From an uncultured virus (IMG/VR IMGVR_UViG_3300043006_000086) (taxonomy: Duplodnaviria > Heunggongvirae > Uroviricota > Caudoviricetes): 64,000 nucleotides of DNA. Under the pieces are notes generated by a model. It saw only the letters and a list, made by a program, of their open reading frames with translations. It did not search any database and was not told where the DNA came from. Shown in pieces: positions 6,937-21,904 of this stretch. The stretch spans positions 1-64,000 of the IMG/VR virus record IMGVR_UViG_3300043006_000086; one strand, 5' to 3'. A program made the position numbers and the translations under genes. How positions within the stretch are numbered: the stretch's first letter is position 1; each line of letters opens with the position of its first letter.

Positions 6937-7054
6937 GGTGGCCCGGCCGGTCCCCAACACTGTGTCACAATTTATCGAGATCGTTATCGTTTCTAAAACT
7001 CTCTCCTCTCCTCTATAATCATAGCTACGCTATTCTCATTGTCAATTTTTGCAA

Positions 7055-7097
7055 TAAAAAATACCCCGCATGAAAACTTGTTCATGCGAGGCAAAAT
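7055..7097 (-). terminator. Intrinsic terminator for 7123..7536
   Basis: CGCATGAA-aacttg-TTCATGCG stem with flanking A runs. Confidence 0.65.
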
Positions 7098-7122
7098 ATA
7101 AAAATAATCGTGGCTTTTTTAA

Positions 7123-7536: not shown

Positions 7537-7792
7537 AATATCTTTCTCCTTTTGGAATCATTCTTTTTTCTTTATCTTATGTATATATTATAACAAAAAT
7601 TTTTTAAAAAATCAATTGCGGATCTTTTGATTTAGGTTGCGCCCGGAAATTTTTTTATTTTTTTATATTATATCAAATTTTTTTTACAAAAGTCAAAGAC
7701 GTACTCACGATCGATAACTTTTGCTCTTCTGGATTAACTACAGAGTAGCTACGCTATTACCTCAGAAGAGAGCGACGACTAGAAAATTTGAA

Positions 7793-7949
7793 GCATATGA
7801 GGTGGCGCCGGTCCCACGGTGAGCAAAAACGAGCCATATGAGGCGTCGCTCCGGACGCCGGGCTAGGTCCGCCCGGAGGTTTCGGGTTTCGGGAAAATGG
7901 GCGCGCATATGAGACCGACCTACAGTGAGCAAAAAATTCGCATATGGGG
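7793..7949. repeat. GC-rich region with a duplicated CATATG / GTGAGCAAAAA unit
   Basis: CATATG at 7794, 7835, 7906, 7941; AC(G/A)GTGAGCAAAAA-N5-CATATG twice. Confidence 0.75.
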
Positions 7950-8066
7950 GTCCGGCCGGAAGTTCGGGCCGCTTCGCTCCCGAACGGCCCGTTGATTCAG
8001 CGCAGTAGTAACGCGTTACTTCGTTAAAGTGTTACACTTCAACGCGCTAAAGCGACGTGCGCAAGC

Positions 8067-8094
8067 AAAAGGCTGGGTGTCATTACACCCAGCC
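8067..8094 (-). terminator. Intrinsic terminator closing the early island
   Basis: GGCTGGGTGT-aatg-ACACCCAGCC followed by TTTT on minus strand. Confidence 0.75.
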
Positions 8095-8099
8095 CGGCC

Positions 8100-8240
8100 T
8101 CAGTCTTCCTCTTCATGCTCATCCCTAAATCCCTGCTCAGGGCAGTCGCGCCAAGGATTCCGCAACATGCAACCCCCATCTGCGTAGTAAGGGCAGTCCC
8201 AATTATCATCAATGCAATCCCAATCAACTGGCTTTTTCAT
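8100..8240 (-). CDS. Small acidic 4-Cys protein (paralog of 20173..20325)
   Basis: MKKPVDWDCIDDNWDCPYYADGGCMLRNPWRDC...EEED; GAGAGG SD; own promoter. Confidence 0.75.
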   Translation of the reverse strand: MKKPVDWDCIDDNWDCPYYADGGCMLRNPWRDCPEQGFRDEHEEED

Positions 8241-8332
8241 TTCTTTTACCTCTCTTTCATTTGATACACTTATTTTACCATGAAAAAACATCGTTGTCAA
8301 GAGAAAAATCCCAATTTCTTGGGATTTTTTCT

Positions 8333-8743
8333 TTATTTTTTCGGTTTTCGCTTCTGAACAAGCGTAAATTCATAGGTTTCATCCCCAATTTGGAAAGAAA
8401 TCTGTCTTTCTGCATTAGTAATTGTAACATTTTCATAGGAAATTTCGGAATTTTCCTGCAAAAACTGTGCAATTTGTGCAATTACACCAGATTTTGTGGT
8501 GTTTTCTTTCTTTTTTTTCTCGAATTTATAGGTTGTAGGCTTCTTTGTGGTAGTTTTTGTACCAGTCTTAGTGTTCGCCTTAACTACCTTTTTCTGCTCT
8601 TCTGTCAAGTCATTTGTGACTTCCTTCATTGACATTTTATCGACCTCAAGGTCATCCATTACAAGGGCAAGTGCTTCATCTCTGGACAGACCTAAAACTT
8701 TCATCTGTTTGGAAACTTCCTTTTCAATCTGTTGTGGTGTCAT
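8333..8743 (-). CDS. Hypothetical protein, partner of wHTH (paralog of 12795..13163)
   Basis: Shared KQMKxLGLxRxEA, TxYKF and ERxxxF motifs. Confidence 0.85.
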   Translation of the reverse strand: MTPQQIEKEVSKQMKVLGLSRDEALALVMDDLEVDKMSMKEVTNDLTEEQKKVVKANTKTGTKTTTKKPTTYKFEKKKKENTTKSGVIAQIAQFLQENSEISYENVTITNAERQISFQIGDETYEFTLVQKRKPKK

Positions 8744-8842
8744 TTTATCGACTTCCTTTCTTCATTTGATACATTAAGTATAGCACACAATTCTAGATCT
8801 GTCAAGAGTTTTTTAAACTTTTCCCCTACGGGGAGGGGAGGA

Positions 8843-9220
8843 TTACTCCTCCTCCTCAATTTCCGCAAGCTTGAAGTAAGCTTTTCTCTTTTCCTCAAAT
8901 CTGATAACTTTACCTTCATCTTTGAGCTGTCTAACAAGGGCTGTTACTTTCTGGTTTGCTAAACCTTCCAGTTCCGGAATTTCCTTCATCATCTGGGAGA
9001 TTGTAGCGGAAGCACCGCCTGCAAGATGAGTAAGGATAACATTTTTCAGACCTTCATTAGCAGTCTGGGTAGCAGTCGGCTTGCGCTCTGCTGAATTTTT
9101 CTTAATGGTCTGCTCAAGAATTTTCTCAAGCTTTGTAACTGCTTCTTCATTACCTGTTGCTCTAACTGCTTCGATTGCGATTTCAAGGGCTACTTTGTTT
9201 GTCATTTTGTTGTTCATCAT
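8843..9220 (-). CDS. Winged-helix DNA-binding-like protein, copy 1 of 3
   Basis: ATISQMMK...ANQKVTALVRQLKDEGKVIRFEEKRKAYF wHTH pattern. Confidence 0.8.
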   Translation of the reverse strand: MMNNKMTNKVALEIAIEAVRATGNEEAVTKLEKILEQTIKKNSAERKPTATQTANEGLKNVILTHLAGGASATISQMMKEIPELEGLANQKVTALVRQLKDEGKVIRFEEKRKAYFKLAEIEEEE

Positions 9221-9344
9221 GGTATCTACCTCTTTCTTTCTTTTTTTTATTTGTTTTCTTTGTTCTTTATGTATTTATTATATCATGGGTTATTAGGTTT
9301 GTCAAGCTTTTTTTTTATTTTTTTTTGGATTTTTGTTTGGGGAT

Positions 9345-9707
9345 TCAATCCCCAAACATTTCCTTTACTTTGATAACTTTCTCATACTCGATGTCGAAAT
9401 TTCTCCATTCACCAGAAGGCGAATAGTAGTAATGCCCAATTGATGGGGTCAAACCATTGTAATCATCAAAAGGATTAGAAAGACCTTCTTCCTCTCCCCA
9501 ATACTGGATAAACAAAGCGGCTTCTTCGGTCTTAGTTCCGATGAAGTAGGCATCTTCTAATCTCTCAACTGAATTACCTTCTTCATCTGCTAAAGTGAAC
9601 TGTCCAACAACCGCATTCAGTGCAAGCTGAAATTCATAGTTTCTGCATTCATCTTCATCCCAGAACTGTGCTCCATCATTAGCTTCATAGTAAGTTACTT
9701 CCTTCAT
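9345..9707 (-). CDS. Acidic hypothetical protein
   Basis: Start moved to MKEVTYYEA after AAAGGA SD. Confidence 0.8.
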   Translation of the reverse strand: MKEVTYYEANDGAQFWDEDECRNYEFQLALNAVVGQFTLADEEGNSVERLEDAYFIGTKTEEAALFIQYWGEEEGLSNPFDDYNGLTPSIGHYYYSPSGEWRNFDIEYEKVIKVKEMFGD

Positions 9708-9764
9708 TTTATCAATTCCTTTCTTCATTTGATGTATTTATTATATCATGGGTTCGGGGTTTTG

Positions 9765-9941
9765 TCAACCCCCAAATCCAAACTTTTTAGCGATTTTTTT
9801 ACATCTCGCTATTCTTGCTTCTTCATTACCGCTTTCCATCTGGAAAGTAGTGTACTTTACTTTAAAAGGATGTCCAGAAGCAACCGCTTCTGCATAGCTT
9901 GTGGTTTCAACTCCATTTACCAAATAAGATACTTTTGTCAT
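9765..9941 (-). CDS. Hypothetical protein
   Basis: MTKVSYLVNG; its TGA stop lies inside the next promoter's TTGACA. Confidence 0.7.
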   Translation of the reverse strand: MTKVSYLVNGVETTSYAEAVASGHPFKVKYTTFQMESGNEEARIARCKKIAKKFGFGG

Positions 9942-9942
9942 T

Positions 9943-10152
9943 TTACATTTCCTCTCTTTCTTCATTTGATGTAATCATTATAACATAGATTTGAGGGTCT
10001 GTCAATAGTTTTTTTAACTTTTCTCGATTTTTTCTTCTAGCTGACCGCTTTACCATGCGGGCGTCTTTTGCCCTGTTCCGATTATGAACACATTTTGCGT
10101 TGATGTCCCAACAGGTAAAGCCCACCATTGTTTCTCTCTTAAAAGCATCCAT
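9943..10152 (-). CDS. Basic hypothetical protein
   Basis: GGAGG SD; C-terminus runs through the next promoter. Confidence 0.65.
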   Translation of the reverse strand: MDAFKRETMVGFTCWDINAKCVHNRNRAKDARMVKRSARRKNREKLKKLLTDPQIYVIMITSNEEREEM

Positions 10153-10272
10153 TGTTTGTTCCCTCCTTTACTTTCTAAAGAAATTATACCAAAATTTTGG
10201 GAAAATGTCAATTCCGGAATATTAACCAAAATTTGAGAAGAAAATTTGTATAGATTGACTATTGACGAAAAA

Positions 10273-10331
10273 CCGGCCGTCGCATGCGACCACGGCCGGC
10301 CAATTATACTACATCTTCTGGAATTTGTCAA
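10273..10331 (-). promoter_or_regulatory. GC palindrome H1 with a promoter firing into it
   Basis: CCGGCCGT-N11-ACGGCCGG (10273-10299); minus TTGACA(10331)-N17-TATAAT(10308). Confidence 0.8.
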
Positions 10332-10371
10332 GTAGTAAAATTGCATAAAAAAAAGAAGCCCGAAGGCTTCT

Positions 10372-10572
10372 TTAACTGTAGAAGTATGCGGCTTCCCTCA
10401 TTTCCTCCTCTGTACATTCCACATGACACATGTCAGTTGCGTATGCGGCGACTCCTACCCAGCTTCCGGGCTTACATCTTGCATTTGCAAGATGCTTAGC
10501 ATCTCGAGCCTTTTCATTCTCAATCATTCTCGCAAGCGTTAAAGAAGTATTTACCAAACCACGAACATCCAT
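10372..10572 (-). CDS. Hypothetical protein
   Basis: ORF track; GAGAGG SD; terminator at about 10346-10373. Confidence 0.7.
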   Translation of the reverse strand: MDVRGLVNTSLTLARMIENEKARDAKHLANARCKPGSWVGVAAYATDMCHVECTEEEMREAAYFYS

Positions 10573-10629
10573 TTCATTTTCCTCTCTTTCTTTTTGATAG
10601 AATCATTATATCATACCTTTTGGTTAATG

Positions 10630-10830
10630 TCAATAAGAATTTTCATAATCCACAACCATTTCTTTATATCTGCCGGAAATCGTATTTCTAAGAATCCGCC
10701 ATACTCTCCAAATGGGATTTCCACCCGTAAAAGCTGAATGATAAACACTCTTGAAATTGTTTAAAGATTTTCTTTCCGTCCACGCTTTAAGTGCATGGTA
10801 TGTACTTGCTTTAATGTTCCATTTTGCCAT
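10630..10830 (-). CDS. Hypothetical protein
   Basis: ORF track; stop overlaps the next -35 box. Confidence 0.7.
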   Translation of the reverse strand: MAKWNIKASTYHALKAWTERKSLNNFKSVYHSAFTGGNPIWRVWRILRNTISGRYKEMVVDYENSY

Positions 10831-10914
10831 TTTTCTTTTCCTCTCTTTCTTTTGATACTGTTATTATACCATAGCGTGGACTAGTTGTCAACCCCCTTTG
10901 GGGGAAACTGAGGA

Positions 10915-11292
10915 TTATTCCTCAGTTTCAGTGTTAAGGTAAAAGTATACCTTTCTCTTTTCCTCAATTCTGATGACTACGCCATCTTCTTTGAGCTGTC
11001 TCACAATAGCGGAGACTTTCTGGTTAGACAGCCCCTCAAGGCTTGCCACACCTTTCATAATCTCTGTTACTGTCGCTCTCTTGCCATCAGACAGGAAAGC
11101 TACAATGTCTGCTTTCAGACCTTCATTAGCAACCTGCGTTGCTGTCGGTTTTCTCTCCGCAGAGTTCTTTTTAACAGTCTGCTCAAGAATTTTCTCAAGC
11201 TTTTCAATAACCTCTGTATTCGGGGTTTCCTGTGCTCCCAGAGTTGCGATTGCGATTTCCAGTGCCTTTTTGTTAGTCATTTTGTTTGTCAT
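10915..11292 (-). CDS. Winged-helix DNA-binding-like protein, copy 2 of 3
   Basis: MTNKMTNKKALEIAI...KKNSAERKPTATQ...SNQKVSAIVRQLK. Confidence 0.8.
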   Translation of the reverse strand: MTNKMTNKKALEIAIATLGAQETPNTEVIEKLEKILEQTVKKNSAERKPTATQVANEGLKADIVAFLSDGKRATVTEIMKGVASLEGLSNQKVSAIVRQLKEDGVVIRIEEKRKVYFYLNTETEE

Positions 11293-11394
11293 AGTATCAA
11301 TTCCTTTCTGGTTTTTAGAACTTTTTCCTTGTTCCTTTTGATGTTTTTATTATATCATGTTTGATAATGGTTGTCAAGAGGTTTTTGAAAAAAC

Positions 11395-11518
11395 TTTTTT
11401 GGGTGCTTTGCTTAGGTAAGTCTTGTTTATTTGATTGAATAGTTGGTTCCTTGCCATTCTTCAACTGGAAACCGCTTACACTCTAAGCAACTGTTTGGTT
11501 TTTCTCAACCTCTGTGAC
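11395..11518 (-). ncRNA. Candidate structured small RNA
   Basis: Consensus promoter 11522-11550; no SD-led ORF; TTGCTTAG-agt-GTAAG pairs with CTTAC-CTAAGCAA; internal GGTTTC/GGAACC stem. Confidence 0.4.
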
Positions 11519-11559
11519 TCCATTATAACACTCTCAGCTAAGATTGTCAAGTGTTTTTT

Positions 11560-11613
11560 TTTATTTCATCTTCTGGATTTTCGAGGAGCGCTCAACTCGT
11601 TTTCCTTCTTGAT
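11560..11613 (-). ncRNA. Candidate small RNA or empty cassette
   Basis: Promoter 11620-11648; nested CATC/GATG, GGA/TCC, CGAG/CTCG pairings; no ORF. Confidence 0.3.
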
Positions 11614-11664
11614 GCTTTTATTATATCATAGCTTGAAGTGTTTGTCAAGAAGTTTTTTTTATTT

Positions 11665-11742
11665 TTTTTTGAAGATGGCTCTTCCGACCGCCAATTACAA
11701 CCTATCCAAGTTCGACTGTTAGGCAACTTCCTTCTTGACTAT
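11665..11742 (-). ncRNA. Candidate small RNA or empty cassette
   Basis: Promoter 11749-11777; GAAG/CTTC closing a junction with GCCTA/TAGGT and TGGC/GCCA stems; no convincing ORF. Confidence 0.3.
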
Positions 11743-11875
11743 GTACTTATTATAGCACATCTGGTTTAGTTTGTCAAGAGGTTTTTTTTATTTTTTTTCT
11801 TTCGGCTTCTGGAAGCCTTTCCCTCCTGACAGTTATTATAATATCACATCTACCCCTAGAATACAATTGGTAAAA

Positions 11876-11905
11876 TGCACAAATTTTGGGAAAAATATTT
11901 GTGCA
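11876..11905. promoter_or_regulatory. TGCACAAA-N14-TTTGTGCA operator-like site
   Basis: Perfect 8-bp inverted repeat with 14-nt spacer. Confidence 0.75.
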
Positions 11906-11924
11906 GTTTTTTCACCGGTTTTGC

Positions 11925-11988
11925 TTGACAAAATGCTGAAGCCTGTGGTATAATCGAAATTCTGGCCGCGTCAGTGGAAAGCGGCCAG
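11925..11988 (+). promoter_or_regulatory. Antisense promoter firing into GC palindrome H2
   Basis: TTGACA-N18-TATAAT (extended TG), then CTGGCCGC-N11-GCGGCCAG (11962-11988). Confidence 0.75.
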
Positions 11989-12013
11989 CCCAATTATCGG
12001 GCTGACCTTAGGC

Positions 12014-12298
12014 TTACAGCTGATAGCCTAAGCCTTTCAGCAGGTCAATTAGCTGTTCACTCTTGGTGTACTGACGATGGTTCGGGATGAGTACAGCGGC
12101 TACCACCTCAGCTTTGTATCCGGTGTCGAACTCCGGATCATCCAGAGCCTCCTGAGGAGTCATGAACTGGATGCGGTTGATGATGGTCACGTTGCCATCG
12201 GCGTCATTCGCATCGAGGAAGTCAGCCGCCTCAAACGGGTCAGCGAACAGTGCGTTGTATTCAGCTCCATTGATTGTCATGTAATATTTGTCTAACAT
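12014..12298 (-). CDS. Acidic hypothetical protein with atypically high GC
   Basis: Start MLDKYY after GAGAGG SD; ~55% GC in the core by hand count. Confidence 0.75.
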   Translation of the reverse strand: MLDKYYMTINGAEYNALFADPFEAADFLDANDADGNVTIINRIQFMTPQEALDDPEFDTGYKAEVVAAVLIPNHRQYTKSEQLIDLLKGLGYQL

Positions 12299-12440
12299 TT
12301 TCATTACCTCTCTTTCATTTGATAAGACTATTATAATGCCTACGTGCCATTTTGTCAACCCATTTCGGGAAATTCGTTTAAAAAATTTTGCACAAAGATT
12401 TCCAAAAGAAAAACTCTGAACTATACAAACTGCACAAAAA

Positions 12441-12500
12441 CCGCCCCGCGCAAGCGTAATCGGGCGGCCCAATTATACTTCACCTTTTGGATTTTGTCAA
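12441..12500 (-). promoter_or_regulatory. GC palindrome H3 with a promoter firing into it
   Basis: CCGCCC...GGGCGG 27-bp unit (12441-12467); minus TTGACA(12500)-N17-TATAAT(12477); TGCACAAA copies at 12431, 12510, 12535, 12561. Confidence 0.75.
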
Positions 12501-12565
12501 TAGGCAAAATGCACAAAATTTTGATTCGTCATTTTGCACAAAAACGTGCTTTGTGCAAATTGCAC

Positions 12566-12603
12566 AAAAAAAATGACCCCTATTTTCTGGGGTCATTTTT
12601 TTT
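12566..12603. terminator. Bidirectional intrinsic terminator
   Basis: A-run ATGACCCC-N8-GGGGTCAT T-run. Confidence 0.8.
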
Positions 12604-12748
12604 AAACCAGCTGTAAGGTAAAGCGGTTTTCATGTTCCAACAGATGCGCCTGTATTGCGCTTTTACCCTTTGCGAGAATCTCACCTGTTTCTAAATCCAA
12701 AAGAATGTTATCTGCATTTTTGTCGATTACTAAACCGAAATGTTTCAT
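12602..12748 (-). CDS. Small hypothetical protein (48 aa, below ORF-track cutoff)
   Basis: AAGGAG SD; MKHFGLVIDKNADNILLDLETGEILAKG... Confidence 0.7.
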   Translation of the reverse strand: MKHFGLVIDKNADNILLDLETGEILAKGKSAIQAHLLEHENRFTLQLV

Positions 12749-12794
12749 GTTTTTATCTCCTTTGCGCTTTTCCTATTTTTTGGTTTTTCGCCCC

Positions 12795-13163
12795 CTATTT
12801 TCTGGGGGCGCTCAAAACCACTTTGTATTTTGTATCATGGAAGTGAAAAACAAACTCTCTTTCTGGGTTCGCAACTTCATCAACCGCAATTCCCAAACTG
12901 TCAGACAACGCTTGAATCATGGTTGAAACCAGTTCTTCCTTGTCTGGATTCTTTTTCTTTTCCCTCTTGGAAGTATCAAACTTATAAGCTGTCACCTTTC
13001 TTTCAACCTGTCTTGCTTTCTTGGAAGCTTTTTCCTGTTCCTTAGATAAATCAAAAAGCTTTTCGCCTTTATCAATCCGCTCATCATCTTCAATCAGCTG
13101 AATTGCTTCTTCTCTTGTTAAACCGAGCAATTTCATTTGCTTTGCAATCAGTTTTTCATTCAT
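12795..13163 (-). CDS. Hypothetical protein, partner of wHTH (paralog of 8333..8743)
   Basis: KQMKLLGLTREEA, TAYKF, EREFVF motifs. Confidence 0.85.
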   Translation of the reverse strand: MNEKLIAKQMKLLGLTREEAIQLIEDDERIDKGEKLFDLSKEQEKASKKARQVERKVTAYKFDTSKREKKKNPDKEELVSTMIQALSDSLGIAVDEVANPEREFVFHFHDTKYKVVLSAPRK

Positions 13164-13257
13164 GCTGTTTTATCTCCTCTCTTTAGCTTATACTTTATTC
13201 TATCACAGCCGATTGAGATTGTCAAGGGGAAATTTGCATTTCCCCTTGATTTTTTCT

Positions 13258-13641
13258 TTACTCTTCTTCCTCAGAAGAGTTGTAAGCGAAATACGCTTTC
13301 CGCTTTTCCTCGATTCTCACAACCAGATTTTCCTCTTTCAGATTTCTCACAAGAGCGGTTACTTTCTGGTTAGCAAGACCCTCGAGTTCCGGAACTTCTT
13401 TCATCAGTTCCGAAATTGTCTTTTTCTCACCTGTCGCTTTCAGATAAGCGAGAATGTTTTCTTTCAGACCCTCATTTGCGGTCTGAGTTGCTGTTGGCTT
13501 TCTCTCAGCCGAGTTTTTCTTGATTGTCTGTTCAAGAATTTTTTCCAATTTCTCGATAACCTCTGTATTAGGAGTTGCCTGAGCGTTCATAACCTCGATT
13601 GCGATTTCCAGTGCTTTTTTGTTTGTCATTTTGTTTGTCAT
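13258..13641 (-). CDS. Winged-helix DNA-binding-like protein, copy 3 of 3
   Basis: Highly similar to 8843..9220 and 10915..11292. Confidence 0.8.
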   Translation of the reverse strand: MTNKMTNKKALEIAIEVMNAQATPNTEVIEKLEKILEQTIKKNSAERKPTATQTANEGLKENILAYLKATGEKKTISELMKEVPELEGLANQKVTALVRNLKEENLVVRIEEKRKAYFAYNSSEEEE

Positions 13642-13864
13642 AATACCTACCTCTTTCTTTCTTTTAATTTTTATTTTGTTTTCTTTATGTATTTATTATA
13701 TCATAGGGTTTTATGTTTGTCAAGACTTTTTTTTTTATTTTTTTTTTCTTTTTTTTTATTTCACTCTTGACTTTCCTTCCCTTGCTACTCTTTAATGATA
13801 CCACAGGTTGACTTGTTTGTCAAGCTTTTTTTTTATTTTTTTTTCGCCGTCCTTGTGGGCTTGT

Positions 13865-14563
13865 TTAAGCCCACAACTTCCGAACCATTTTCTTGTGCTG
13901 TTTAAAACAGTATGCAAGAATTTCTTTTTCAATTAAAACATCTTCTAAACCAGTGTGGTTTTCAGAAAATTCATTGTTTTTTGAAATAAATCTGTAAAGG
14001 ATTTCAGCGGTAAACCGAAGTCTGCCATTTTTGGTCAAATAACCATTTTCTTCACAAAATTTCTGATAAGTTGGCATTTTTCCAATAACCTGTCTTGACA
14101 TTTTCAAAGTGTCGCAAATTTCAGTTCCATAAGGAAAGAAAAACCGATATTTTGATTTTGTCAGCCATCTTTGCGTATTATTTAAAGTTCCATAGTCAAA
14201 ACGCATGTTGTGCGCATAGACTTCTTTTACCTCATAGAGTTTCATGTCATCTGCAAGCTGTTTTCTGATTTCATAGAAACTTGCAACAACTCTTTTGCCC
14301 TCTGCAATTTCCTTTTTATACATCGGAATTTTTTTTGCATAATAGCTTGACTTCATCAGCTCTTTTTCTTTATTGAAAATTTCATCAACAACAAAACTTC
14401 TTGCTACATACACAACACCCCTTTTATCAACTACCGCCCAACCTATATCATAGGAAAACATGTTGCTAGGAAGAACATCTTCCAGAGTATTGTCAAGCGG
14501 ACAACTCTCGCAATCTAAAACTACCTTGTAACTAATTCTTCTGTCAATTTTTTTCTGCTCCAT
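13865..14563 (-). CDS. DEDDh 3'-5' exonuclease (DnaQ-like)
   Basis: ExoI VVLDCES, ExoII AHNMRFD, ExoIII HTGLED. Confidence 0.85.
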   Translation of the reverse strand: MEQKKIDRRISYKVVLDCESCPLDNTLEDVLPSNMFSYDIGWAVVDKRGVVYVARSFVVDEIFNKEKELMKSSYYAKKIPMYKKEIAEGKRVVASFYEIRKQLADDMKLYEVKEVYAHNMRFDYGTLNNTQRWLTKSKYRFFFPYGTEICDTLKMSRQVIGKMPTYQKFCEENGYLTKNGRLRFTAEILYRFISKNNEFSENHTGLEDVLIEKEILAYCFKQHKKMVRKLWA

Positions 14564-14732
14564 TTCTTTTTACCTCTCTGTTCTTTATGTATTTATTATA
14601 TCATGGAGTAGGAAGTTTGTCAAGCATTTTTTTTATTTATTTTTATTTTTTTTTTGTTTGCTCTTGACTTCTGTTCCCCTCAACTGATAAACCTATTATA
14701 AGCCTTTTCATCATAGAATACAATAGGCAATC

Positions 14733-14826
14733 TGCACAAAGATGATAGAAAATTTTTGTTAATTCTGCCAGGAGTAAAAGTTGCACAAAGTTTTGCCATG
14801 AAGTTTGTGCAGGTTGCCCATTGACA
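14733..14826. promoter_or_regulatory. Two tandem TGCACAAA-N14-TTTGTGCA-type sites
   Basis: 14733-14762 degenerate right half; 14782-14811 perfect; TTGACA 9 bp downstream. Confidence 0.75.
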
Positions 14827-14893
14827 CGCCCCAGGCTAGCAAAGTGCCCAATTTCGGGAGAATTTAAGCGAGAAAATTTGTGCAACTTTTCGC

Positions 14894-14988
14894 TTGACAA
14901 AAGCTGAGCCGTGTGGTATAATGGAAATTTCGCCGGCCCAGGTGCGTGGCCGGCGCGCCATTTTACATCATCTCCTGGAATTTGTCAA
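14894..14988. promoter_or_regulatory. Convergent promoter pair facing GC palindrome H4
   Basis: Plus TTGACA-N17-TATAAT; CGCCGGCC-N9-GGCCGGCG (14931-14955); minus TTGACA-N17-TAAAAT. Confidence 0.8.
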
Positions 14989-15062
14989 TAGGCAATTTAG
15001 ACAAAAATTTAGAGTCAAGTTTATGCAACTTGACTCTTGACTTTTTACTTTTATTTGTCCCT

Positions 15063-15272
15063 TTAATCCTCGTAGAAATTCACTGGATAAATCTGCTCAT
15101 CGTAGTAATAGCCTTCTTCTTCCATCTGTTGGCGCGCTTCTTCTTTTTCTTTTTCCTCGCTCTCTTTAAACCGATAGTTTAAATAATAGGTTTCAAAGGC
15201 TTGCATTGCTAACTCTTTTGTTGCGTACGCTCCAATGTCTCCATCACTATCCCAAACGTAAATTCTTTTCAT
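15063..15272 (-). CDS. Acidic hypothetical protein
   Basis: ORF track; GAGGT SD; own promoter. Confidence 0.75.
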   Translation of the reverse strand: MKRIYVWDSDGDIGAYATKELAMQAFETYYLNYRFKESEEKEKEEARQQMEEEGYYYDEQIYPVNFYED

Positions 15273-15338
15273 TGTATCAACCTCTTTTCTTTTTTCTTTA
15301 TTATACCACTGTTGACGCCCCCTGTCAAGGGGAAATTC

Positions 15339-15779
15339 TCAGAAGCTTCTGAGAATTTCCATGATGTTCTGAACATCGAAAGCATTTGCGCCCCATTCTG
15401 TTCTGTTTCTTTCTTCATCATCAAACAGGAAACCTGTTCTGTCAGATACTACCGAACTTTTTGGTGTTCCATAAGTGACAATTTTGATTTCATCCCATTC
15501 AATACTCGGAAGATGTTTAGCAAGCCATTTCAGCTTTGTTGCGGTAACTTCTGCATTGAACTCTGGTGAACCACTCTTGGAAAGCCATGATACAATTCCG
15601 ATTCTGTAACCGCTGTTCTGCAATCTGTGAAGCTGTCTTGCGAAACTTGAAAAGTTTAAAAGCGGTTTTGCAATTTCATAAGGTCTTGTGTTCGAGTTCA
15701 TTAAATCTTCCAGCCATCCCTCTACTCCATAGAAGTTTGCGATTGTTCCATCCATGTCGAAATAAATTGTTCTTGTCAT
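15339..15779 (-). CDS. HAD-superfamily phosphatase / 5'-nucleotidase-like
   Basis: IYFDMDGT motif I; K and LFDD motifs III/IV. Confidence 0.8.
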   Translation of the reverse strand: MTRTIYFDMDGTIANFYGVEGWLEDLMNSNTRPYEIAKPLLNFSSFARQLHRLQNSGYRIGIVSWLSKSGSPEFNAEVTATKLKWLAKHLPSIEWDEIKIVTYGTPKSSVVSDRTGFLFDDEERNRTEWGANAFDVQNIMEILRSF

Positions 15780-15859
15780 TTTATCTACCTCTTTCTTTCT
15801 TTCTTTTGATAATATTATTATAACCTATTTTTTGGTAATTGTCAAGTATTTTCTTTTAA

Positions 15860-15979
15860 CTATTTTAAAGTTATTTTATAGCCATTAGCATCCTTTTCTA
15901 CCACATACAAGAACTGATTTTCTTTTAAATACTTTTCTGCCTTTTCAAAAGCTTCCTTAGTTGTGTACAAGATTGACAT
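15860..15979 (-). CDS. Small hypothetical protein (39 aa)
   Basis: GAGAGG SD; MSILYTTKEAFEKAEKYLKENQ... Confidence 0.55.
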   Translation of the reverse strand: MSILYTTKEAFEKAEKYLKENQFLYVVEKDANGYKITLK

Positions 15980-16034
15980 TTCATTTACCTCTCTTTTAAG
16001 TTATACCTTATTCTATCACAATCTTTTTAGTTTG

Positions 16035-16649
16035 TCAAGAGGCTTTTTTAAAAGCCCCTTGAAAATAACTCTGATAAATTTTATCAGCTTCGATTAAATC
16101 AAAGTTCGTATTGATAAATCTGTCATTCTTTTTAAAAGAATTTGGATATCTTCTAATGTAAATTGAACGAAAATAGCTTTCTAACCCCTCTGCCGGAAAA
16201 TCCATACAGTCATACACTCTGTGAATCACTGCCCTAACCGCGCCCATCTTTTTGTAAGTATCACTGTTTAATTCCTCTGTTAATCTTTTTCTAATTTCTC
16301 TAGTCGTAGTTCCAACTTTTGAACACAATACGTTGTCATTATCATCGAAAAAGGTAAATAGATAACATTTTTGTTTTGCTTCATCCAGAAGTGATGGACA
16401 GTCAGAAGAAACTAGAATCTTTTCAGTATTTTTTGTTTTTCTTTTGGTTTCAATCTGACTAATTTCTTTTACCGCATTCTCGAAGGGGTCAAGAATATAT
16501 TTTTTTGCTAACTCTTTGCAGTGTTCAAAAATTGTCTTGCAAACTTCAAACCATTTCTTCTTCCAGTTCTTTGAAGTGTTTTCAAGTCTTTCTTTTGCGC
16601 CTTCAAAATCATCATTTTTTACATACCAATCCATTGATTTATTTGCCAT
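16035..16649 (-). CDS. Protein with GIY-YIG / T5orf172-like C-terminal domain
   Basis: CYLFTF...SKVGTTTREIRKRL...LESYF pattern; start moved to MANKS. Confidence 0.5.
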   Translation of the reverse strand: MANKSMDWYVKNDDFEGAKERLENTSKNWKKKWFEVCKTIFEHCKELAKKYILDPFENAVKEISQIETKRKTKNTEKILVSSDCPSLLDEAKQKCYLFTFFDDNDNVLCSKVGTTTREIRKRLTEELNSDTYKKMGAVRAVIHRVYDCMDFPAEGLESYFRSIYIRRYPNSFKKNDRFINTNFDLIEADKIYQSYFQGAFKKAS

Positions 16650-16717
16650 TTCTTTTTTCCTCTCTTTCATTTGATAATGTTATTATAGCACCGAACGTGC
16701 GGTTTGTCAACACTTTT

Positions 16718-16921
16718 TTATTTATTTACGATTTTGTCAAGTAAAATTCCCAGATAGTATTCTGTAAAGGTACATGGACGCATTACAAAATCTTCTTTAT
16801 TCCATTTATCATACTTAAGCGCCATTTTATTAAGCATCTGCTGTTTATTCCGAATTGGATATTTTGATTTAATAAAATAATTATTTGAATCCCCAGTAAT
16901 TTTGACTAATCCGTAATACAT
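16718..16921 (-). CDS. Hypothetical protein
   Basis: Start MYYGLV after GAGAGG SD. Confidence 0.7.
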   Translation of the reverse strand: MYYGLVKITGDSNNYFIKSKYPIRNKQQMLNKMALKYDKWNKEDFVMRPCTFTEYYLGILLDKIVNK

Positions 16922-16941
16922 TCTGTTTACCTCTCTTTCTA

Positions 16942-17130
16942 TCAATTATTATACTCTAACTCTTTCAACCTGTCAAGAGTTTTTTCAATATTTTTCTGAT
17001 ATTTATGTGTTCGATTCTCTCGACACCATTCACATGAGCCATGATTCCGACATTGACAATCAATTGCCTTTGCTCCTCTATACATTTTTCTATGTTCTTT
17101 TCCGCTCATTATTGCCTTTTCCATGCTCAT
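16942..17130 (-). CDS. Small Cys/His protein (CRNHGSCEWC motif)
   Basis: Start MSMEKAI after GAGGAG SD. Confidence 0.75.
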   Translation of the reverse strand: MSMEKAIMSGKEHRKMYRGAKAIDCQCRNHGSCEWCRENRTHKYQKNIEKTLDRLKELEYNN

Positions 17131-17197
17131 TGTTTTATCTCCTCTCTTTTGATACATTTATTATAACAGAAGGGGTTGAACTTGTCAACCCCTTTTT

Positions 17198-17644
17198 TTA
17201 AAATTTTTCTGTAAAAATTACATAACCTTCACGATAACCGCCGAAACAATCATCAAATTCTTTGTCACTACCTTCAATTTCATAATCGTTAATAAGATAA
17301 TTAACTAACTGATTTCTAAATTTACGAATCCATTTTCTATCTTTTCTTGCAAATTCTTTCATTTTATTATTCCAGAGGAATGTTCTTGTATTAACTTCCA
17401 GACCATCAGAATCAAAAGTCTCACAAATTTTTGGAATGTTTCTGTCAAGAACCTCTTTAGCCTGCTCCTCAGACCACACAAGCTTTTCGCCCTGTTTCTC
17501 TTTATATTTTTCAACTACTCGATATCCAACATAGAGAGGATACAGAATCACTCTCATAACCTTGTAGCCATTCTCATTCCACCATTCTCTAACAATGTGT
17601 TCTCTTTTTACCTGTCTTGCATTCATCATTTCCTCAAATCTCAT
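17198..17644 (-). CDS. Hypothetical protein
   Basis: ORF track; GAGAGG SD; own promoter. Confidence 0.8.
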   Translation of the reverse strand: MRFEEMMNARQVKREHIVREWWNENGYKVMRVILYPLYVGYRVVEKYKEKQGEKLVWSEEQAKEVLDRNIPKICETFDSDGLEVNTRTFLWNNKMKEFARKDRKWIRKFRNQLVNYLINDYEIEGSDKEFDDCFGGYREGYVIFTEKF

Positions 17645-17728
17645 TTTATTTACCTCTCTTTCTATCCTTACCTTGTAAATACATTATAGCATAGGTTTGT
17701 GAGTACGTCAAGCTTTTTTTAATTTTTT

Positions 17729-17866
17729 TTAATTCCAATCATATTCCATGGCATCCTCATAATCTATATTATGACGCTTACACCAATTTTTAAAATTTTT
17801 TACTGAACCGCTTGCAATTACTACATCAATATATTCTTCTGTTGTTAATTCATCAATTTTTCTCAT
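17729..17866 (-). CDS. Small hypothetical protein
   Basis: Start MRKIDEL after GAGAGG SD. Confidence 0.65.
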   Translation of the reverse strand: MRKIDELTTEEYIDVVIASGSVKNFKNWCKRHNIDYEDAMEYDWN

Positions 17867-17934
17867 TTTATTTACCTCTCTTTCTTTTGATAGTATTATT
17901 ATAACGCCTTTACGTTCATTTGTCAATACTTTTT

Positions 17935-18141
17935 TTAAATTAGTTGAAAACAATTCATGATGTTAACGTAACTATTGCAAGAAAATTCTCTAACTGTTTT
18001 TGATAAAAATTTCAACATGATTTTTTTAACAATAGTTTCTGGTAGAGTTTTTATCATTTCCCTTTCAATAGTATTGTAAATTCCATTTGGTAATTCATAC
18101 ATCTTCATGGTGTCAAACTCTTCTATTGTCAATAATCTCAT
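17935..18141 (-). CDS. Hypothetical protein
   Basis: ORF track; GAGGA SD. Confidence 0.65.
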   Translation of the reverse strand: MRLLTIEEFDTMKMYELPNGIYNTIEREMIKTLPETIVKKIMLKFLSKTVREFSCNSYVNIMNCFQLI

Positions 18142-18293
18142 TTTCAAGTTCCTCTTCCTTTATTTGATGATATCATTATACCACCACCCATTCCAGAAGT
18201 CAAGCAAAAATTGCACAAAAATTAAGTAAAAATTTTGGTTATTTTTTCCTATTGTGCAAAGTGACGAAATTTCGGGATTCCGACCGGAAAATA

Positions 18294-18374
18294 TTTGTGC
18301 AATCTGCCTATTGACAAAATTGCGGGGTGGTGGTATAATTGAAAATTCCGGCCGCAAGGACAGTGCGCGGCCGG
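18294..18374 (+). promoter_or_regulatory. Operator half-site, antisense promoter and GC palindrome H5
   Basis: TTTGTGCA-atctgccta-TTGACA-N17-TATAAT, then CCGGCCGC-N11-GCGGCCGG (18348-18374). Confidence 0.8.
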
Positions 18375-18414
18375 TCAAAAATTGAAACAAAAAAGAGCTA
18401 ATTTCTTAGCTCTT

Positions 18415-18588
18415 TCACTTAAATATCAACTTAATAATTATCACCGCAACCCAAACCACAAAGGCCAAACCCCAGGTGAATGTAATGAACACTCCGGCAA
18501 ACTGAAGAACAAACAGCAAAAGCCAAAGCAAGCCCGCAGTAAATAAGAAGTCAAGTAGTAATGTAAATAATACTGTTAGTGCTAACAT
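18415..18588 (-). CDS. Small hydrophobic membrane protein (57 aa)
   Basis: GAGGAG SD; MLALTVLFTLLLDFLFTAGLLWLLLFVL... Confidence 0.7.
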   Translation of the reverse strand: MLALTVLFTLLLDFLFTAGLLWLLLFVLQFAGVFITFTWGLAFVVWVAVIIIKLIFK

Positions 18589-18610
18589 GTTCTTTTTCTC
18601 CTCTCTTTTG

Positions 18611-18682
18611 GAGGCTGAGAGCCTTTCCTCGGCATCGCCTCGTGTTCAAGACAACACTGGTACTTTTGGCTCCCGACACCTC
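18611..18682 (-). ncRNA. Candidate structured 5' leader
   Basis: GAGG/CCTC and GGGAGCC/GGCTCTC outer stems enclosing GTGTT/AACAC; promoter 18698-18726. Confidence 0.35.
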
Positions 18683-18718
18683 TTTCTTGATGATTTAATA
18701 ATACCACACTTTTGGTTA

Positions 18719-18967
18719 TTAGTCAAGCCTTTTTCTTGTTCTATTTACAGATTCAAGTAAACATGCATCAGCGAAAAAATAAATCACATGAGACCATTTT
18801 AAAGATTCTTTTGCATAGACTAACAAATCTTCTTCTGTTGGATTCTCTGGAATGCCTGATTTTCTCCAAGTGTCAATACTTTCTTGGCACTCTGTATTCA
18901 TTACGTATTTCTCCATCTGTTGGAGCAAATGAAGTCTTATTTCTATTATTTCTTCCTTGCTATACAT
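18719..18967 (-). CDS. Hypothetical protein
   Basis: Start MYSKEE after GAGGAGG SD. Confidence 0.7.
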   Translation of the reverse strand: MYSKEEIIEIRLHLLQQMEKYVMNTECQESIDTWRKSGIPENPTEEDLLVYAKESLKWSHVIYFFADACLLESVNRTRKRLD

Positions 18968-19100
18968 TGCGCTCCTCCTCTTGCTTAACAATGAACTGTA
19001 ATAGTTCTATTAAGTCCTTTACATCATCTATTGTCCCTATCTCAATGGCGTGTTCGCTATCACAACCATAGAAAATTTTATTATCTTGTTCAATGTTCAT
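18960..19100 (-). CDS. Small hypothetical protein (46 aa)
   Basis: MNIEQDNKIFYGCDSEHAIEIG...; ATGA overlap with upstream gene. Confidence 0.55.
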   Translation of the reverse strand: MNIEQDNKIFYGCDSEHAIEIGTIDDVKDLIELLQFIVKQEEERNV

Positions 19101-19240
19101 TTTTCCTTCTCCTCTCTAAGAATTTTATTAATGAGGTTTTTGATTTCTTTTAAATCTTCCAAATCGCAGTAAACTTTGTCGCCCCAACCGCCTTTAATTG
19201 TGTATGGATAATTTTTATCGTCGCTTCTTTCGATTGTCAT
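19097..19240 (-). CDS. Small hypothetical protein (47 aa)
   Basis: AAGGAG SD; MTIERSDDKNYPYTIKGGWGDKVYC... Confidence 0.6.
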   Translation of the reverse strand: MTIERSDDKNYPYTIKGGWGDKVYCDLEDLKEIKNLINKILREEKEK

Positions 19241-19315
19241 TGTATGCAACTCCTTTTCTTTTTGATAATGTTATTGTATCACAGGGGCTGACATTTGTCA
19301 ACCCCTTTTTTGAAA

Positions 19316-19729
19316 TTATTTCTGACTGATGTTAAAATCATCATTTCTATCATACAGATAGTTTGACATGAAGTCTGTTTCATCACAACCATTTACCATC
19401 ATCAGAGAATACTCTTTATCTCCAAAACCATAGAGAAGCTGTCTAATTGTTTTACCCTTTGCATAAGCATAACCGCATTCCCATGCTGTCCCGCTGTCTG
19501 AATACATCCCGAAGTTGAGAACCCACACTTCATCAGCTTTGTCGATTGCGTCAACATCCTGCTGGAAAACCTTCCTACCCCATGTTGCATTGTCTAAATC
19601 CCACGCATTTTCAATTTCATGTTCTATTGGAGCGTAAACTTCCAAACCTTGCGCGCGCATCTTCTGGAGAATTTGAACATACATTACTCTTTCATTATTT
19701 TTGAACCATGGACTTGCTAAATAAATCAT
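19316..19729 (-). CDS. Nucleoside 2-deoxyribosyltransferase (NDT)-family protein
   Basis: IYLASPWF; D..AID.AD; DSGTAWECGYAYAKGK motifs. Confidence 0.85.
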   Translation of the reverse strand: MIYLASPWFKNNERVMYVQILQKMRAQGLEVYAPIEHEIENAWDLDNATWGRKVFQQDVDAIDKADEVWVLNFGMYSDSGTAWECGYAYAKGKTIRQLLYGFGDKEYSLMMVNGCDETDFMSNYLYDRNDDFNISQK

Positions 19730-19918
19730 TGTATCAACCTCTTTCTTTTTTGATAATATTATAATATCATATTTTTTGGTAATTGTCAATAGTTATTTTT
19801 CACGTTTTAGGTTTGGACTTAATGCCCAAACCTAATGTAGTGATTCATCCAGTTTTCGCTGAACTGCTCTTTGAACTCTTCCGCATACTCTGTATTATAA
19901 CCCCTTCTGGGGCTTTTG

Positions 19919-20101
19919 TCAAGCCCCTTTTTCAAGAACTTTTATTAAATCTTCCTTTACGCAAAAGGTTCTTTTATCTCTCTTAACTGAAAAAGGACAG
20001 TTCATACAACCAATTCCAATACAGTTAGGCTCAATTAAAAGTTCGATTGCCTTAATCTCTTCTTCGTCCAGAAGTCCCCTTTTAACAACAACAGTTTTCA
20101 T
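19919..20101 (-). CDS. Small Cys-containing hypothetical protein
   Basis: Start MKTVVV; CIGIGCMNCPF; stop lies inside the next TTGACA. Confidence 0.7.
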   Translation of the reverse strand: MKTVVVKRGLLDEEEIKAIELLIEPNCIGIGCMNCPFSVKRDKRTFCVKEDLIKVLEKGA

Positions 20102-20172
20102 CTTTTTAATTCCTCTCTTTCTTTTGATGTATTTATTATAGCATGAAGGTTGACGTTTATCAACCCCCAATT

Positions 20173-20325
20173 TTAATCATCCTCTGTTTCCCAATATTCA
20201 TCATCTTCATCCCAGAATGCCGCGAAATCATCACATTCTTCTATTGGATTATCAATTCCGCAAGTTCCATCTTTCTTCCAGTGGGGACAATCCCAACCAT
20301 TAACAGGACAATACACTTTCTTCAT
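20173..20325 (-). CDS. Small acidic 4-Cys protein (50 aa; paralog of 8100..8240)
   Basis: MKKVYCPVNGWDCPHWKKDGTCGIDNPIEECDDFAAFWDEDDEYWETEDD; AAAGGA SD; own promoter. Confidence 0.75.
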   Translation of the reverse strand: MKKVYCPVNGWDCPHWKKDGTCGIDNPIEECDDFAAFWDEDDEYWETEDD

Positions 20326-20394
20326 TTTTATCAATTCCTTTCTTCTTTTGATATTATCATTATAACATGGATTGACTTAATTGTCAACAAGAAA

Positions 20395-20868
20395 TTATAA
20401 TTTCTTGTTGATTTCTGTTACATTGTATTTCACATGATATTTCTGCAAAATATCTTTGATGATAGCACTTTCTTCTCTGGTCTTACTGAAAATGTCGATG
20501 TTGTAATAGGTTTCATCTTTGTAAACTACTTCACCACAAGTATAACTAACTGAGAATGGTTCTAACTTGTTGACTAACTCTTTATCTTTTGAAGTAACTG
20601 AGATTTTCCACAAACAATCTTTCTTGCATTTTTCCATGAGCCAAATTGACGCATACACACCAATTAAATTAGTTAAGATGGTTACCGTAACAGTGATACC
20701 TAAGTCAAGACTAGCTAACTGTTTAACCACAACCGCGTAGAATCCGTAGGACAGTGCGTTGATTGCCGCCGCGGTCTTTTTACCTGCGCGCACGGTTAAG
20801 ATTGATTTCATTGTTGACAGCATTACATTGATTAAACTACATGTAAAAAATATTATAATTGCTTGCAT
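20395..20868 (-). CDS. Membrane protein, DUF5698/DUF2179-like
   Basis: INVMLSTMKSILT...AINALSYGFY hydrophobic N-terminus with a soluble C-terminal domain. Confidence 0.6.
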   Translation of the reverse strand: MQAIIIFFTCSLINVMLSTMKSILTVRAGKKTAAAINALSYGFYAVVVKQLASLDLGITVTVTILTNLIGVYASIWLMEKCKKDCLWKISVTSKDKELVNKLEPFSVSYTCGEVVYKDETYYNIDIFSKTREESAIIKDILQKYHVKYNVTEINKKL

Positions 20869-20939
20869 TTCTTTTATTCTCCTCTCTCTTGGAACTATAA
20901 TTATTATACCCCGAAAGGGGTTATTTGTCAACCCCTATT

Positions 20940-21317
20940 TCATTTATTTCTTAACATTTTAATTTCATTTTTGATTGCATTAATAGCTTCTTCACATTCA
21001 GCGATTTTCTTTTTCTTAGTTGTTTCTTTCATTGTTTTACTTGCATAGATTCTATTTTCTTCTGCAAACCATCTATTCAGACTACGCGTTTTGAATTCAA
21101 TAGTTCTCTTCTGAGAAGCTAATTCCCTTGCCTTTTTCTCTTCTTTGTTGTCGCCTCTAACCTCTACGATTTCTACCATTGCTACAGTTGCAATTCCATT
21201 TTCATTTGTTGAGATGGTTTTAAAATAATCTCCTACGTGATATTTTTTAGCTTCTTTATTAGAAATAGTTGCTACTACGTATTCTTCATGACCATTTCTT
21301 GCGATAATCTCTTTCAT
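20940..21317 (-). CDS. Hypothetical protein
   Basis: ORF track; own promoter. Confidence 0.75.
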   Translation of the reverse strand: MKEIIARNGHEEYVVATISNKEAKKYHVGDYFKTISTNENGIATVAMVEIVEVRGDNKEEKKARELASQKRTIEFKTRSLNRWFAEENRIYASKTMKETTKKKKIAECEEAINAIKNEIKMLRNK

Positions 21318-21413
21318 TTTATTCCACCAAATCCCTTTAGGATTTCCCTTTCTTTATTATGTAATTATTATACCATGGGGCTGACCTTTTGTCAACCCCT
21401 TTTGGAAAATTTT

Positions 21414-21830: not shown

Positions 21831-21904
21831 TATCATCATGCCCTTTCTTATCTCTTTTGATGATACTATTGTATCACACATAGCTTACTTTGTCAACGTC
21901 TTTT

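Follow-up and report, generated by a model that had tools for sequence, protein, structure and literature searches.

The window analysed here comprises bases 1–64000 of a 74.5-kb viral record (IMG/VR IMGVR_UViG_3300043006_000086). Between positions 10206 and 18420 it carries five copies (H1–H5) of a short non-coding unit, in which near-consensus promoters point into a GC-only hairpin. These units are a real, conserved and sharply patterned cis-module, as is evident from their layout, the strand-specific spacing of their promoters, the paired variation of their stems and their restriction to the early region. Throughout, 'sense' refers to the minus strand of the window, along which the early genes run, and 'antisense' to the plus strand; P− and P+ denote the sense and antisense promoters facing the hairpin, and T1 the terminator of the gene that precedes the unit. 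Our tentative reading, held at somewhat less than even confidence, is that the units are boundary modules, which would combine an antisense RNA headed by a 5′ hairpin, backup termination in the sense direction and a P− start site inside the stem.

Read in the sense direction, a full unit consists of the end of a gene, T1, a box, P−, the GC hairpin, P+ with its own box, a AATTTCGGGA element, a further box and the promoter of the next gene. A TTTGTGCA-like box is found 8 nt before the −35 of P−, and at both promoters the TTTGTGCA boxes sit 8 nt upstream of the −35. P− lies 2–4 nt from the hairpin and P+ 7–8 nt from it (GGAAAWTT), so placed that their −10 boxes are ~38 bp apart. Both promoter types match every known strength element (TTGACA, TRTG, TATAAT and a G-rich discriminator), and P+ regularly stands back-to-back with the promoter of the following sense gene, each of the two having boxes. 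The units occupy gaps just 3′ of sense genes of many kinds; genes faced by P+ encode a winged-helix protein, its partner, a 232–245-aa conserved protein, a nucleotidase-like protein and a small hydrophobic peptide.

Conservation was assessed by searching IMG/VR with a pattern for the antisense promoter alone (TTGACAAAA, spacer, GTGGTATAAT, N, GAAAWTT), which contains no hairpin; the conservation of the hairpin seen by this promoter-only search is non-circular. The pattern identified 47 loci in 43 viral contigs, many of 130–198 kb, and a GC hairpin follows 7–8 nt after the −10 in 47/47 loci. All 36 distinct downstream sequences fold with a GC hairpin right after GGAAAWTT (dG −10.8 to −33.2). 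Five complete genomes of 175–198 kb have all their matches inside one 3–12-kb stretch, and a reversed control pattern gave none; each genome holds 5 to 12 units, all in one early stretch. The published phage phAss-1 also carries units. Among other cultured relatives, none were found in three and Enterococcus phage EF1 gave one doubtful match. A 232-aa conserved early protein is also present in Enterococcus phages without units and is therefore not linked to them. The layout is kept across the 43 contigs and phAss-1 while the sequences diverge. The sequence-only reading had proposed a dedicated cis-system, and these results support it; what is conserved is the structure, not the sequence.

Strand counts were made over 43 loci with 20-kb contexts (746.5 kb), with the majority strand taken as sense. 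Near-consensus promoters number 1073 sense and 209 antisense. A GC hairpin faces 121 of the 209 antisense promoters, at 7–9 nt in 112 (47 of the 121 are the search seeds themselves), compared with 72 of the 1073 sense promoters, at 2–4 nt in 69. There are 114 distinct hairpins, and the dominant length is 27 nt (89/164 distinct promoter–hairpin pairs). In an alignment of 52 distinct 27-nt hairpins, both partners vary at six of the eight stem pairs, in 102 cells where shuffles give 30; pairing was a criterion for selecting this set, and only its variation counts as evidence. The remaining positions are fixed, with C–G and G–C at stem positions 6–7 in 52/52. In addition, the loop has C at position 3 in 41/52 and CG at positions 7–8 in 42/52. 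The invariant stem pairs and conserved loop letters suggest a sequence-specific reader.

The hairpin is not simply the terminator of the neighbouring gene; had it acted only as such, the sequence-only reading would have been refuted by its own terms. A canonical terminator lies just upstream in 95 of 114 units, and the GC hairpin is therefore a second hairpin rather than the neighbour's primary terminator. T1 is present in 48 of the 54 units with P−, where its stem ends 14–24 nt before the −35 in 46 and at 31 and 54 nt in two. It lies within 130 nt in 47 of the 60 antisense-only units, with the stem end 8–17 nt before the hairpin in 36 of the 60. The GC hairpins are also unlike T1 in style, having GC-only stems and long loops; as intrinsic terminators their loops, of 9–11 nt, are atypical. 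Sense-only units have (A/G)TTTTTGTCAA after the hairpin. This sequence is the antisense −35 plus its A-run in reverse complement, and it looks as though a deletion had removed the antisense spacer and −10.

The three classes of unit differ in what follows the hairpin on each strand. With a T-run defined as at least 4 T in any 6-nt stretch just after the hairpin, one is found in the antisense direction in 0/60 antisense-only, 6/28 sense-only and 12/26 two-promoter units, and in the sense direction in 28/60, 19/28 and 6/26, respectively. The sense-only units would thus be good sense terminators. The sense −10 is TAAAAT in 12/26 two-promoter units and in 4/28 sense-only units, and this form of the −10 provides a U-run after the hairpin for the antisense RNA. 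When the two strands are compared as RNA, scored on exact stems and without dangling-end terms (which inflate the difference), the P+ strand folds better in units with P+ (49 versus 23, p 0.03), whereas the sense strand folds better in units without it (15 versus 6, p 0.05). The first terminator-like site downstream of P+ lies at 61–130 nt in 33 of 86 units and is usually a reversed T1; it lies at 131–400 nt in 12 and beyond 400 nt in 23, and there is none within 1.5 kb in 18. Opposite-strand promoters converge on sense genes and T1, as in a cis-antisense RNA gene, the transcript itself being predicted.

In the window, the five hairpins are located where the sequence-only reading had placed them, and promoters point into all five as it had described, each with 12/12 matches to the consensus except the H4 sense promoter (TAAAAT), which has 11/12. 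Its account of close spacing between −10 and stem also holds (3–4 nt for the minus-strand promoters; the plus-strand promoters lie at 7–8 nt), as does that of TTTTT after H1 and H3 on the minus strand, and no open reading frame (ORF) with a ribosome site follows any of these promoters. H4 is a full unit with both promoters, H2 and H5 have the antisense promoter only, and H1 and H3 the sense promoter only; T1 directly precedes the sense promoter in H1, H3 and H4. Stems of 8 bp enclose loops of 11 nt in H1, H2 and H5 and of 9 nt in H4, while H3 is imperfect, with only six outer pairs and an inner 3-bp helix.

At H1, the T1 of gene 10372–10572 (10352–10373, minus strand) is a canonical terminator, a hairpin followed by TTTTTTT. 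P− (10303–10331, minus strand; TTGACA-17-TATAAT) is separated from the 8-bp GC stem of hairpin H1 (10273–10299) by 3 nt (TGG), and TTTTT comes next on the minus strand (10268–10272). Beside H1, the plus strand carries TTGACT/TTGACG at 10255–10267, apparently what is left of the −35 of an antisense promoter that has disappeared. At H2, two TGCACAAA boxes (11876–11905) lie upstream of P+ (11925–11954, plus strand), which is of the form TTGACA-18-TATAAT with TG and is followed after 7 nt (CGAAATT) by hairpin H2 (11962–11988), 26 nt sense-downstream of the stop codon of gene 12014–12298. Hairpin H3 (12441–12467; minus-strand TTTTT at 12436–12440) has two TGCACAAA boxes on its sense-downstream side (12389–12438, plus strand) and P− (12472–12500, minus strand) 4 nt from the stem. 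The adjoining 12510–12594 holds four TGCACAAA boxes, including the palindrome TTTGTGCAAATTGCACAAA (12549–12568), and the two-way T1 of gene 12602–12748 (stem ~12575–12594).

Hairpin H4 (14931–14955) lies between two head-on promoters. On one side, four TGCACAAA boxes and a AATTTCGGGA element (14733–14884) are upstream of P+ (14894–14922, plus strand), 8 nt (GGAAATTT) from the stem; on the other, P− (14960–14988, minus strand) has the −10 TAAAAT, 4 nt (GGCG) from the stem, and the complement of this −10, ATTTTA, follows the hairpin on the plus strand. The T1 of gene 15063–15272 (15011–15037) is terminator-like on both strands. At H5, TGCACAAA boxes and a AATTTCGGGA element (18212–18301) lie between P+ (18311–18339, plus strand) and the diverging sense promoter 18203–18175. 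P+ is 8 nt (TGAAAATT) from the stem of hairpin H5 (18348–18374), and the T1 of this unit (18391–18416, minus strand) terminates the gene for a 57-aa hydrophobic peptide (18415–18588).

A covariance model, a check put forward in the sequence-only reading, was built from the 52 related 27-nt hairpins, which include H1, H2 and H5. Run on the window, it also recovers H3 (E 1e-6) and H4 (E 0.015), together with one extra, promoter-less hairpin copy at 7957–7999 (hairpin 7965–7991; E 3e-8); nothing else in the 64 kb was found at E < 0.2. The extra copy lies in a GC-richer non-coding stretch (7700–8100) with four CATATGAG/CATATGGG and two GTGAGCAAAAA repeats, which may be an iteron-like site.

There are 19 copies of TGCACAAA in the window, compared with 3.3 expected and 8 in the largest shuffle. 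They cluster at H2, H3, H4 and H5 and at a sixth promoter near 22946. The statement that such boxes surround every unit is therefore correct for four of the five, H1 having degenerate copies only. Boxes within 150 nt of a hairpin number 135 of 292, against 18.7 expected, a sevenfold enrichment. A conserved quasi-palindromic element, AAATTT(C/T)GGGA(A/T), occurs at 11880–11895, 14848–14862, 18268–18282, 10197–10212 and 12366–12380; where the antisense promoter and the following sense promoter diverge, it stands between them at a constant distance, and it may bear a loose likeness to the CodY box.

The large terminase subunit of the phage is nearest, at 46–61 % identity, to those of an unannotated human-gut phage fragment, 134–142-kb Enterococcus phages, Geobacillus virus E3 and the gut phage phAss-1. 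With a terminase closest to large Enterococcus and Geobacillus phages and phAss-1, the phage is judged not to be T4-like; it looks lytic. Window positions 14647–25000 are matched without a difference by a 175,638-bp record that bears direct terminal repeats and is rated 100 % complete; this record ends there and is therefore the same phage. phAss-1 has been filed in a TAG-recoding clade; the long ORFs of the window phage are open under the standard code. The minus strand from ~7000 to 22975 contains some 40 small early genes, nearly all with their own TTGACA-17-TATAAT promoter and a conserved purine-rich ribosome-site leader (…ATCAAAAGAAAGAGAGG). Near-consensus promoters in the first 26 kb of the record number 42 on the minus strand and 5 on the plus, three of the five being the antisense promoters of H2, H4 and H5. 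The structural genes and a phage sigma factor are on the plus strand from 24894, the sigma-factor gene (24894–25904) opening this late block; a 3386-aa ORF at 41397–51557 (plus strand) probably encodes the tape-measure protein, judged by its length. Megablast of 10206–18420 against GenBank phages found no match, a tRNA scan found nothing relevant, and PDB sequence searches with three early proteins found nothing. Rfam gave four chance-level matches in 7000–24000, none at a unit and none near the gathering score.

A winged-helix protein (MarR/TrmB-like, by weak Pfam and PHROG matches) is encoded three times in the early region, at 8843–9220, 10915–11292 and 13258–13641, and two copies have a partner gene for a 122–136-aa protein (8333–8743 and 12795–13163). 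In the relatives, 34–36 of 43 loci have the winged-helix gene and 24–29 of 43 its partner. The paralogs were considered as the box-binding factor and set aside, as no homolog was found in phAss-1, which has units and boxes, in a search that is weak for distant relatives. Upstream of them (11300–11860, 13690–13830 and 9277–9305) there are consensus promoters in tandem without a convincing ORF, at 11777, 11648 and 11550, then 11377, and at 13823 and 13723. At the right edge of the early region (22907–23300), a plus-strand promoter (TTGACA 22946–22951, TATAGG 22969–22974) is situated between two boxes. It faces ~300 nt of non-coding DNA with no hairpin, which folds no better than shuffles (z +1.55).

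Parts of the stretch are present in six metatranscriptome runs; four of these were examined, as low-depth contigs. Contigs of four RNA libraries lie over parts of 10970–11821, and three of them span ~11300–11820. One contig (depth 2.3) joins 15008 to 18293 with 20 other letters at the joint and skips the 3.3 kb between H4 and H5; this may represent a relative without that block, or a repeat artefact.

Amongst the roles offered in the sequence-only reading, antisense control of the early genes fits best, because P+ is the most constant part of the unit, the whole hairpin would be at the 5′ end of its RNA and every unit is turned towards the 3′ end of a sense gene; the tiny hairpin RNAs and recombination sites also proposed there fared less well (see below), while a polymerase trap or roadblock is possible. 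Bacterial RNA polymerase starts ~7 nt after the −10. By this rule P+ would start 1–3 nt before the stem, and its non-coding RNA would therefore begin with a very stable 5′-terminal hairpin. Such a hairpin could protect an RNA that has no ribosome site in hosts with 5′-end-dependent RNA decay, early mRNAs relying instead on their purine-rich ribosome-site leaders, a known kind of 5′ stabiliser in Bacillus to judge from work in the reference list of PMC3997798. From the hairpin, the antisense RNA would run back over T1 into the 3′ end of the upstream early gene. It is predicted to stop at the reversed T1, after 60–130 nt, in about four in ten units and to extend for hundreds of nucleotides in the rest. 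It could function in cis as an antisense RNA, and the polymerase engaged on it would run head-on into polymerases reading through, so that the upstream unit may be silenced or fenced off either by the RNA or by that polymerase.

In the sense direction, the GC hairpin would back up T1 as a further, fail-safe terminator, and a strong one in units where a T5–7 run has replaced a lost P+ (H1, H3). P− would start 3–5 nt inside the 5′ arm; its RNA, lacking the full hairpin, would partly escape and restart sense transcription. Since the −10 boxes are only ~38 bp apart, P+ and P− are probably not occupied at the same time, and one factor binding the TTTGTGCA boxes might set the balance between them. 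On this reading, held at the confidence given at the outset, the units would mark transcription-unit boundaries in the host-polymerase-driven early region of a large gut phage with Clostridia-type hosts.

A number of points weigh against this reading. A purely structural role does not account for the stem pairs that are invariant in 52/52 hairpins, nor for the conserved loop letters. The strands differ little in folding (0.3–0.65 kcal/mol), and this amongst sequences that are related to each other, and the count of G–T versus A–C wobbles is even (22 versus 23). The predicted length of the antisense RNA is very uneven. At H1, the truncated sense RNA still folds, at −14.5 kcal/mol, before UUUUU; the sense promoter may therefore escape the hairpin only partly or not at all. 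The RNA-library contigs carry no transcript strand, start or end. The winged-helix paralogs, considered as the box-binding factor, were not found in phAss-1 by the weak search. In addition, the genes upstream of the units share no family, and there is therefore no single target.

Several other explanations can be set beside the boundary module. It may be polymerase occupancy, and not RNA, that matters: the near-ideal promoters could hold host polymerase at gene boundaries and block read-through, with the head-on pair as a two-state switch, or the antisense promoter, ~60 bp from the diverging promoter of the next gene, could supply negative supercoiling, the hairpin serving only to stop polymerases quickly. 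The full set of strength elements in both promoter types, the ~38 bp between the head-on −10 boxes, the back-to-back placing of P+ and the next sense promoter with boxes at both, and the U-run that TAAAAT offers the antisense RNA, preferentially in two-promoter units, are all in keeping with this. It leaves unexplained the variation of stems with kept pairing, the strict 7–8 nt spacing that puts the whole hairpin in the antisense RNA and the absence of a T-run in 60/60 antisense-only units, and most early genes manage without such units; we consider it rather unlikely. Less likely again are ordinary tandem terminators and early promoters, tightly packed and spread by recombination among the many near-identical promoter and leader sequences, which would leave PeSL-like scars (see below), with antisense promoters that have no selected role. 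T1 followed at fixed spacing by a sense promoter is indeed a plain terminator–promoter composite, gene gains and losses relative to close relatives fall at promoter boundaries, and the sense-only units would be good terminators (at least 4 T in 19/28). Ordinary parts would not account for a hairpin at 58 % of antisense promoters (7–9 nt) against 6.7 % of sense promoters (2–4 nt), for a layout kept in 43 contigs and phAss-1 despite sequence divergence, or for hairpins that differ from T1 in style, with GC-only stems and long loops.

Similarly doubtful, and marginally more so, is that one or both promoters make tiny hairpin RNAs of 30–45 nt, which would be decoys or sponges for an RNA-binding protein or nuclease of the host or of the phage, or would pair with each other into short double-stranded RNA. 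This fits H1 and H3, which consist of promoter, hairpin and T5 with nothing between, and H4-type units, in which the start region of each promoter is the U-tract of the other; the invariant CG pairs of the stem and conserved loop letters suggest a specific binding partner. RNA-seq of phage K is reported to have found small non-coding RNAs in the early terminal repeat (PMC9241854). The locus of a 46-nt phage K RNA does not, however, share the unit layout, and the same holds for snc002, the phage K small-RNA locus. Stems and loops vary between the units of a single phage, which speaks against their mimicking any one fixed target (a CRISPR repeat, for example). None of the 60 antisense-only units is able to end an RNA at the hairpin, and tiny RNAs, an option raised in the sequence-only reading, are thus a poor fit as the general product.

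Sites acting at the DNA level, as transcription-primed replication origins (R-loops), cruciforms or recombination sites for gene blocks, are very improbable. Gene-less promoters and a GC palindrome with AT-rich flanks would suit them, as would the single low-depth contig that joins 15008 to 18293, H4 to H5 (side 26, depth 2.3). The number of units, from 5 to 12 in each genome, their confinement to a single early stretch and the lack of an adjacent integrase or replication gene speak against them, and an 8-bp stem with an 11-nt loop makes a poor cruciform. The proposal that the hairpins are cassette recombination sites or gene-content breakpoints was not borne out by comparison with close relatives at 84–98 % identity, in which all five lie inside collinear blocks: H1 in 6001–10615, H2–H4 in 11602–15050 and H5 in 17848–19895. 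The breakpoints, including 10615, 10831, 11386, 11602, 15050, 15996 and 16642, are at ordinary promoters and gene ends. Gene gains and losses fall at the promoter boundaries of early genes, which therefore behave as promoter-bearing cassettes.

No description of the module was found in the literature searched, the coverage of which did not extend to subscription journals. The words promoter, terminator, hairpin, early and repeat are all absent from the genome paper of phAss-1 (PMC10607447). Inward-pointing promoters with an antisense partner would be the new feature, promoter–terminator and cis-antisense designs being of known kinds. The closest described concept is that of the promoter-early stem-loops (PeSLs) of T4-type phages, as set out by Comeau et al. 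(2014; PMC4122927) and also the subject of Arbiol et al. (2010; PMC2839356). Like the units, PeSLs are dispersed, combine a stem-loop with a near-perfect early promoter of the sigma-70 type and are situated in a large lytic phage, between early genes that are small and variable, and their order of a stem-loop terminator and then a same-direction early promoter is found in the T1 and P− half of the unit (46/54 units). The PeSL promoter, however, follows the stem-loop and points away from it, whereas the unit promoters point into a second, GC-only hairpin; the defining partner of the unit is an antisense promoter; and PeSLs mark indel breakpoints, which the unit hairpins do not. The structures on which the 5′ stem-loop comparison draws are the 5′-terminal mRNA stabilisers of ompA, papA and the aprE leader, listed among the references of PMC3997798. 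The units share with them a stable hairpin a few nucleotides from an RNA 5′ end, but the known ones are on mRNAs, while the unit hairpin is predicted on a non-coding antisense RNA and there is also a sense-strand hairpin.

Other systems show partial likeness to the units. In phage lambda, OOP is a short cis-antisense RNA convergent with cII; it too comes from a constitutive opposite-strand promoter that fires into the 3′ end of an early gene, but the units are multi-copy, have fixed geometry, face many unrelated genes, and have a 5′-terminal GC hairpin and often a head-on sense promoter. Bacillus prophages encode the type I toxin–antitoxin pairs txpA/RatA and bsrG/SR4. A similar layout is seen at H5, where the gene for the 57-aa, very hydrophobic peptide (18415–18588, minus strand) is faced at its 3′ end by an antisense promoter, and an antisense promoter likewise faces homologous peptides of 56–69 aa in loci of four relatives (L051, L055, L064 and L068). 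Most units, in contrast, follow non-hydrophobic genes and the phage appears lytic, and the toxin role at H5 is a likeness of layout only. Face-to-face promoter interference is known from pR–pL of coliphage 186, where, as in the two-promoter units, two strong promoters converge over a short distance and are mutually exclusive; the units differ in the ~38 bp between −10 boxes, the hairpin between them, the several copies per genome and the lack of a lysis–lysogeny choice. Two further candidates were rejected. An integron attC-type site is not supported, as there is no integrase or recombinase family among 35 early proteins, the stems are perfect and the hairpins are not breakpoints. A solitary CRISPR repeat (RNA anti-CRISPR) is likewise not supported, since stems and loops differ within one phage, the 3′ flank is not conserved and there is no Rfam match, no host repeat having been compared.

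A more elaborate version of the boundary module, which we regard as speculative and improbable as a whole, is a family-wide transcription valve: two near-ideal host promoters would compete head-on over a hairpin of which the antisense RNA alone contains the whole, a factor binding the TTTGTGCA boxes would flip the balance, a dedicated protein would read the hairpin, as the invariant CG pairs of the stem and the conserved loop C..CG suggest, and together these would time the shut-off of early genes, or their block-by-block release, in 130–200-kb phages of gut and rumen Clostridia.

Little is understood of the early 'host-takeover' regions of large Firmicute phages, and the units bear on the open question of how the many constitutive promoters in such regions are kept apart and later silenced. 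They provide a sharply defined cis-element, with 114 distinct versions and a strand-specific spacing rule, which in at least five complete genomes is confined to the early region. Should the antisense RNAs prove real, the units could yield compact parts for Gram-positive synthetic biology (a stabilising 5′ hairpin, a stop that works both ways and a head-on switch), and for the phages themselves they would represent a general RNA-based insulation or shut-off of early genes.

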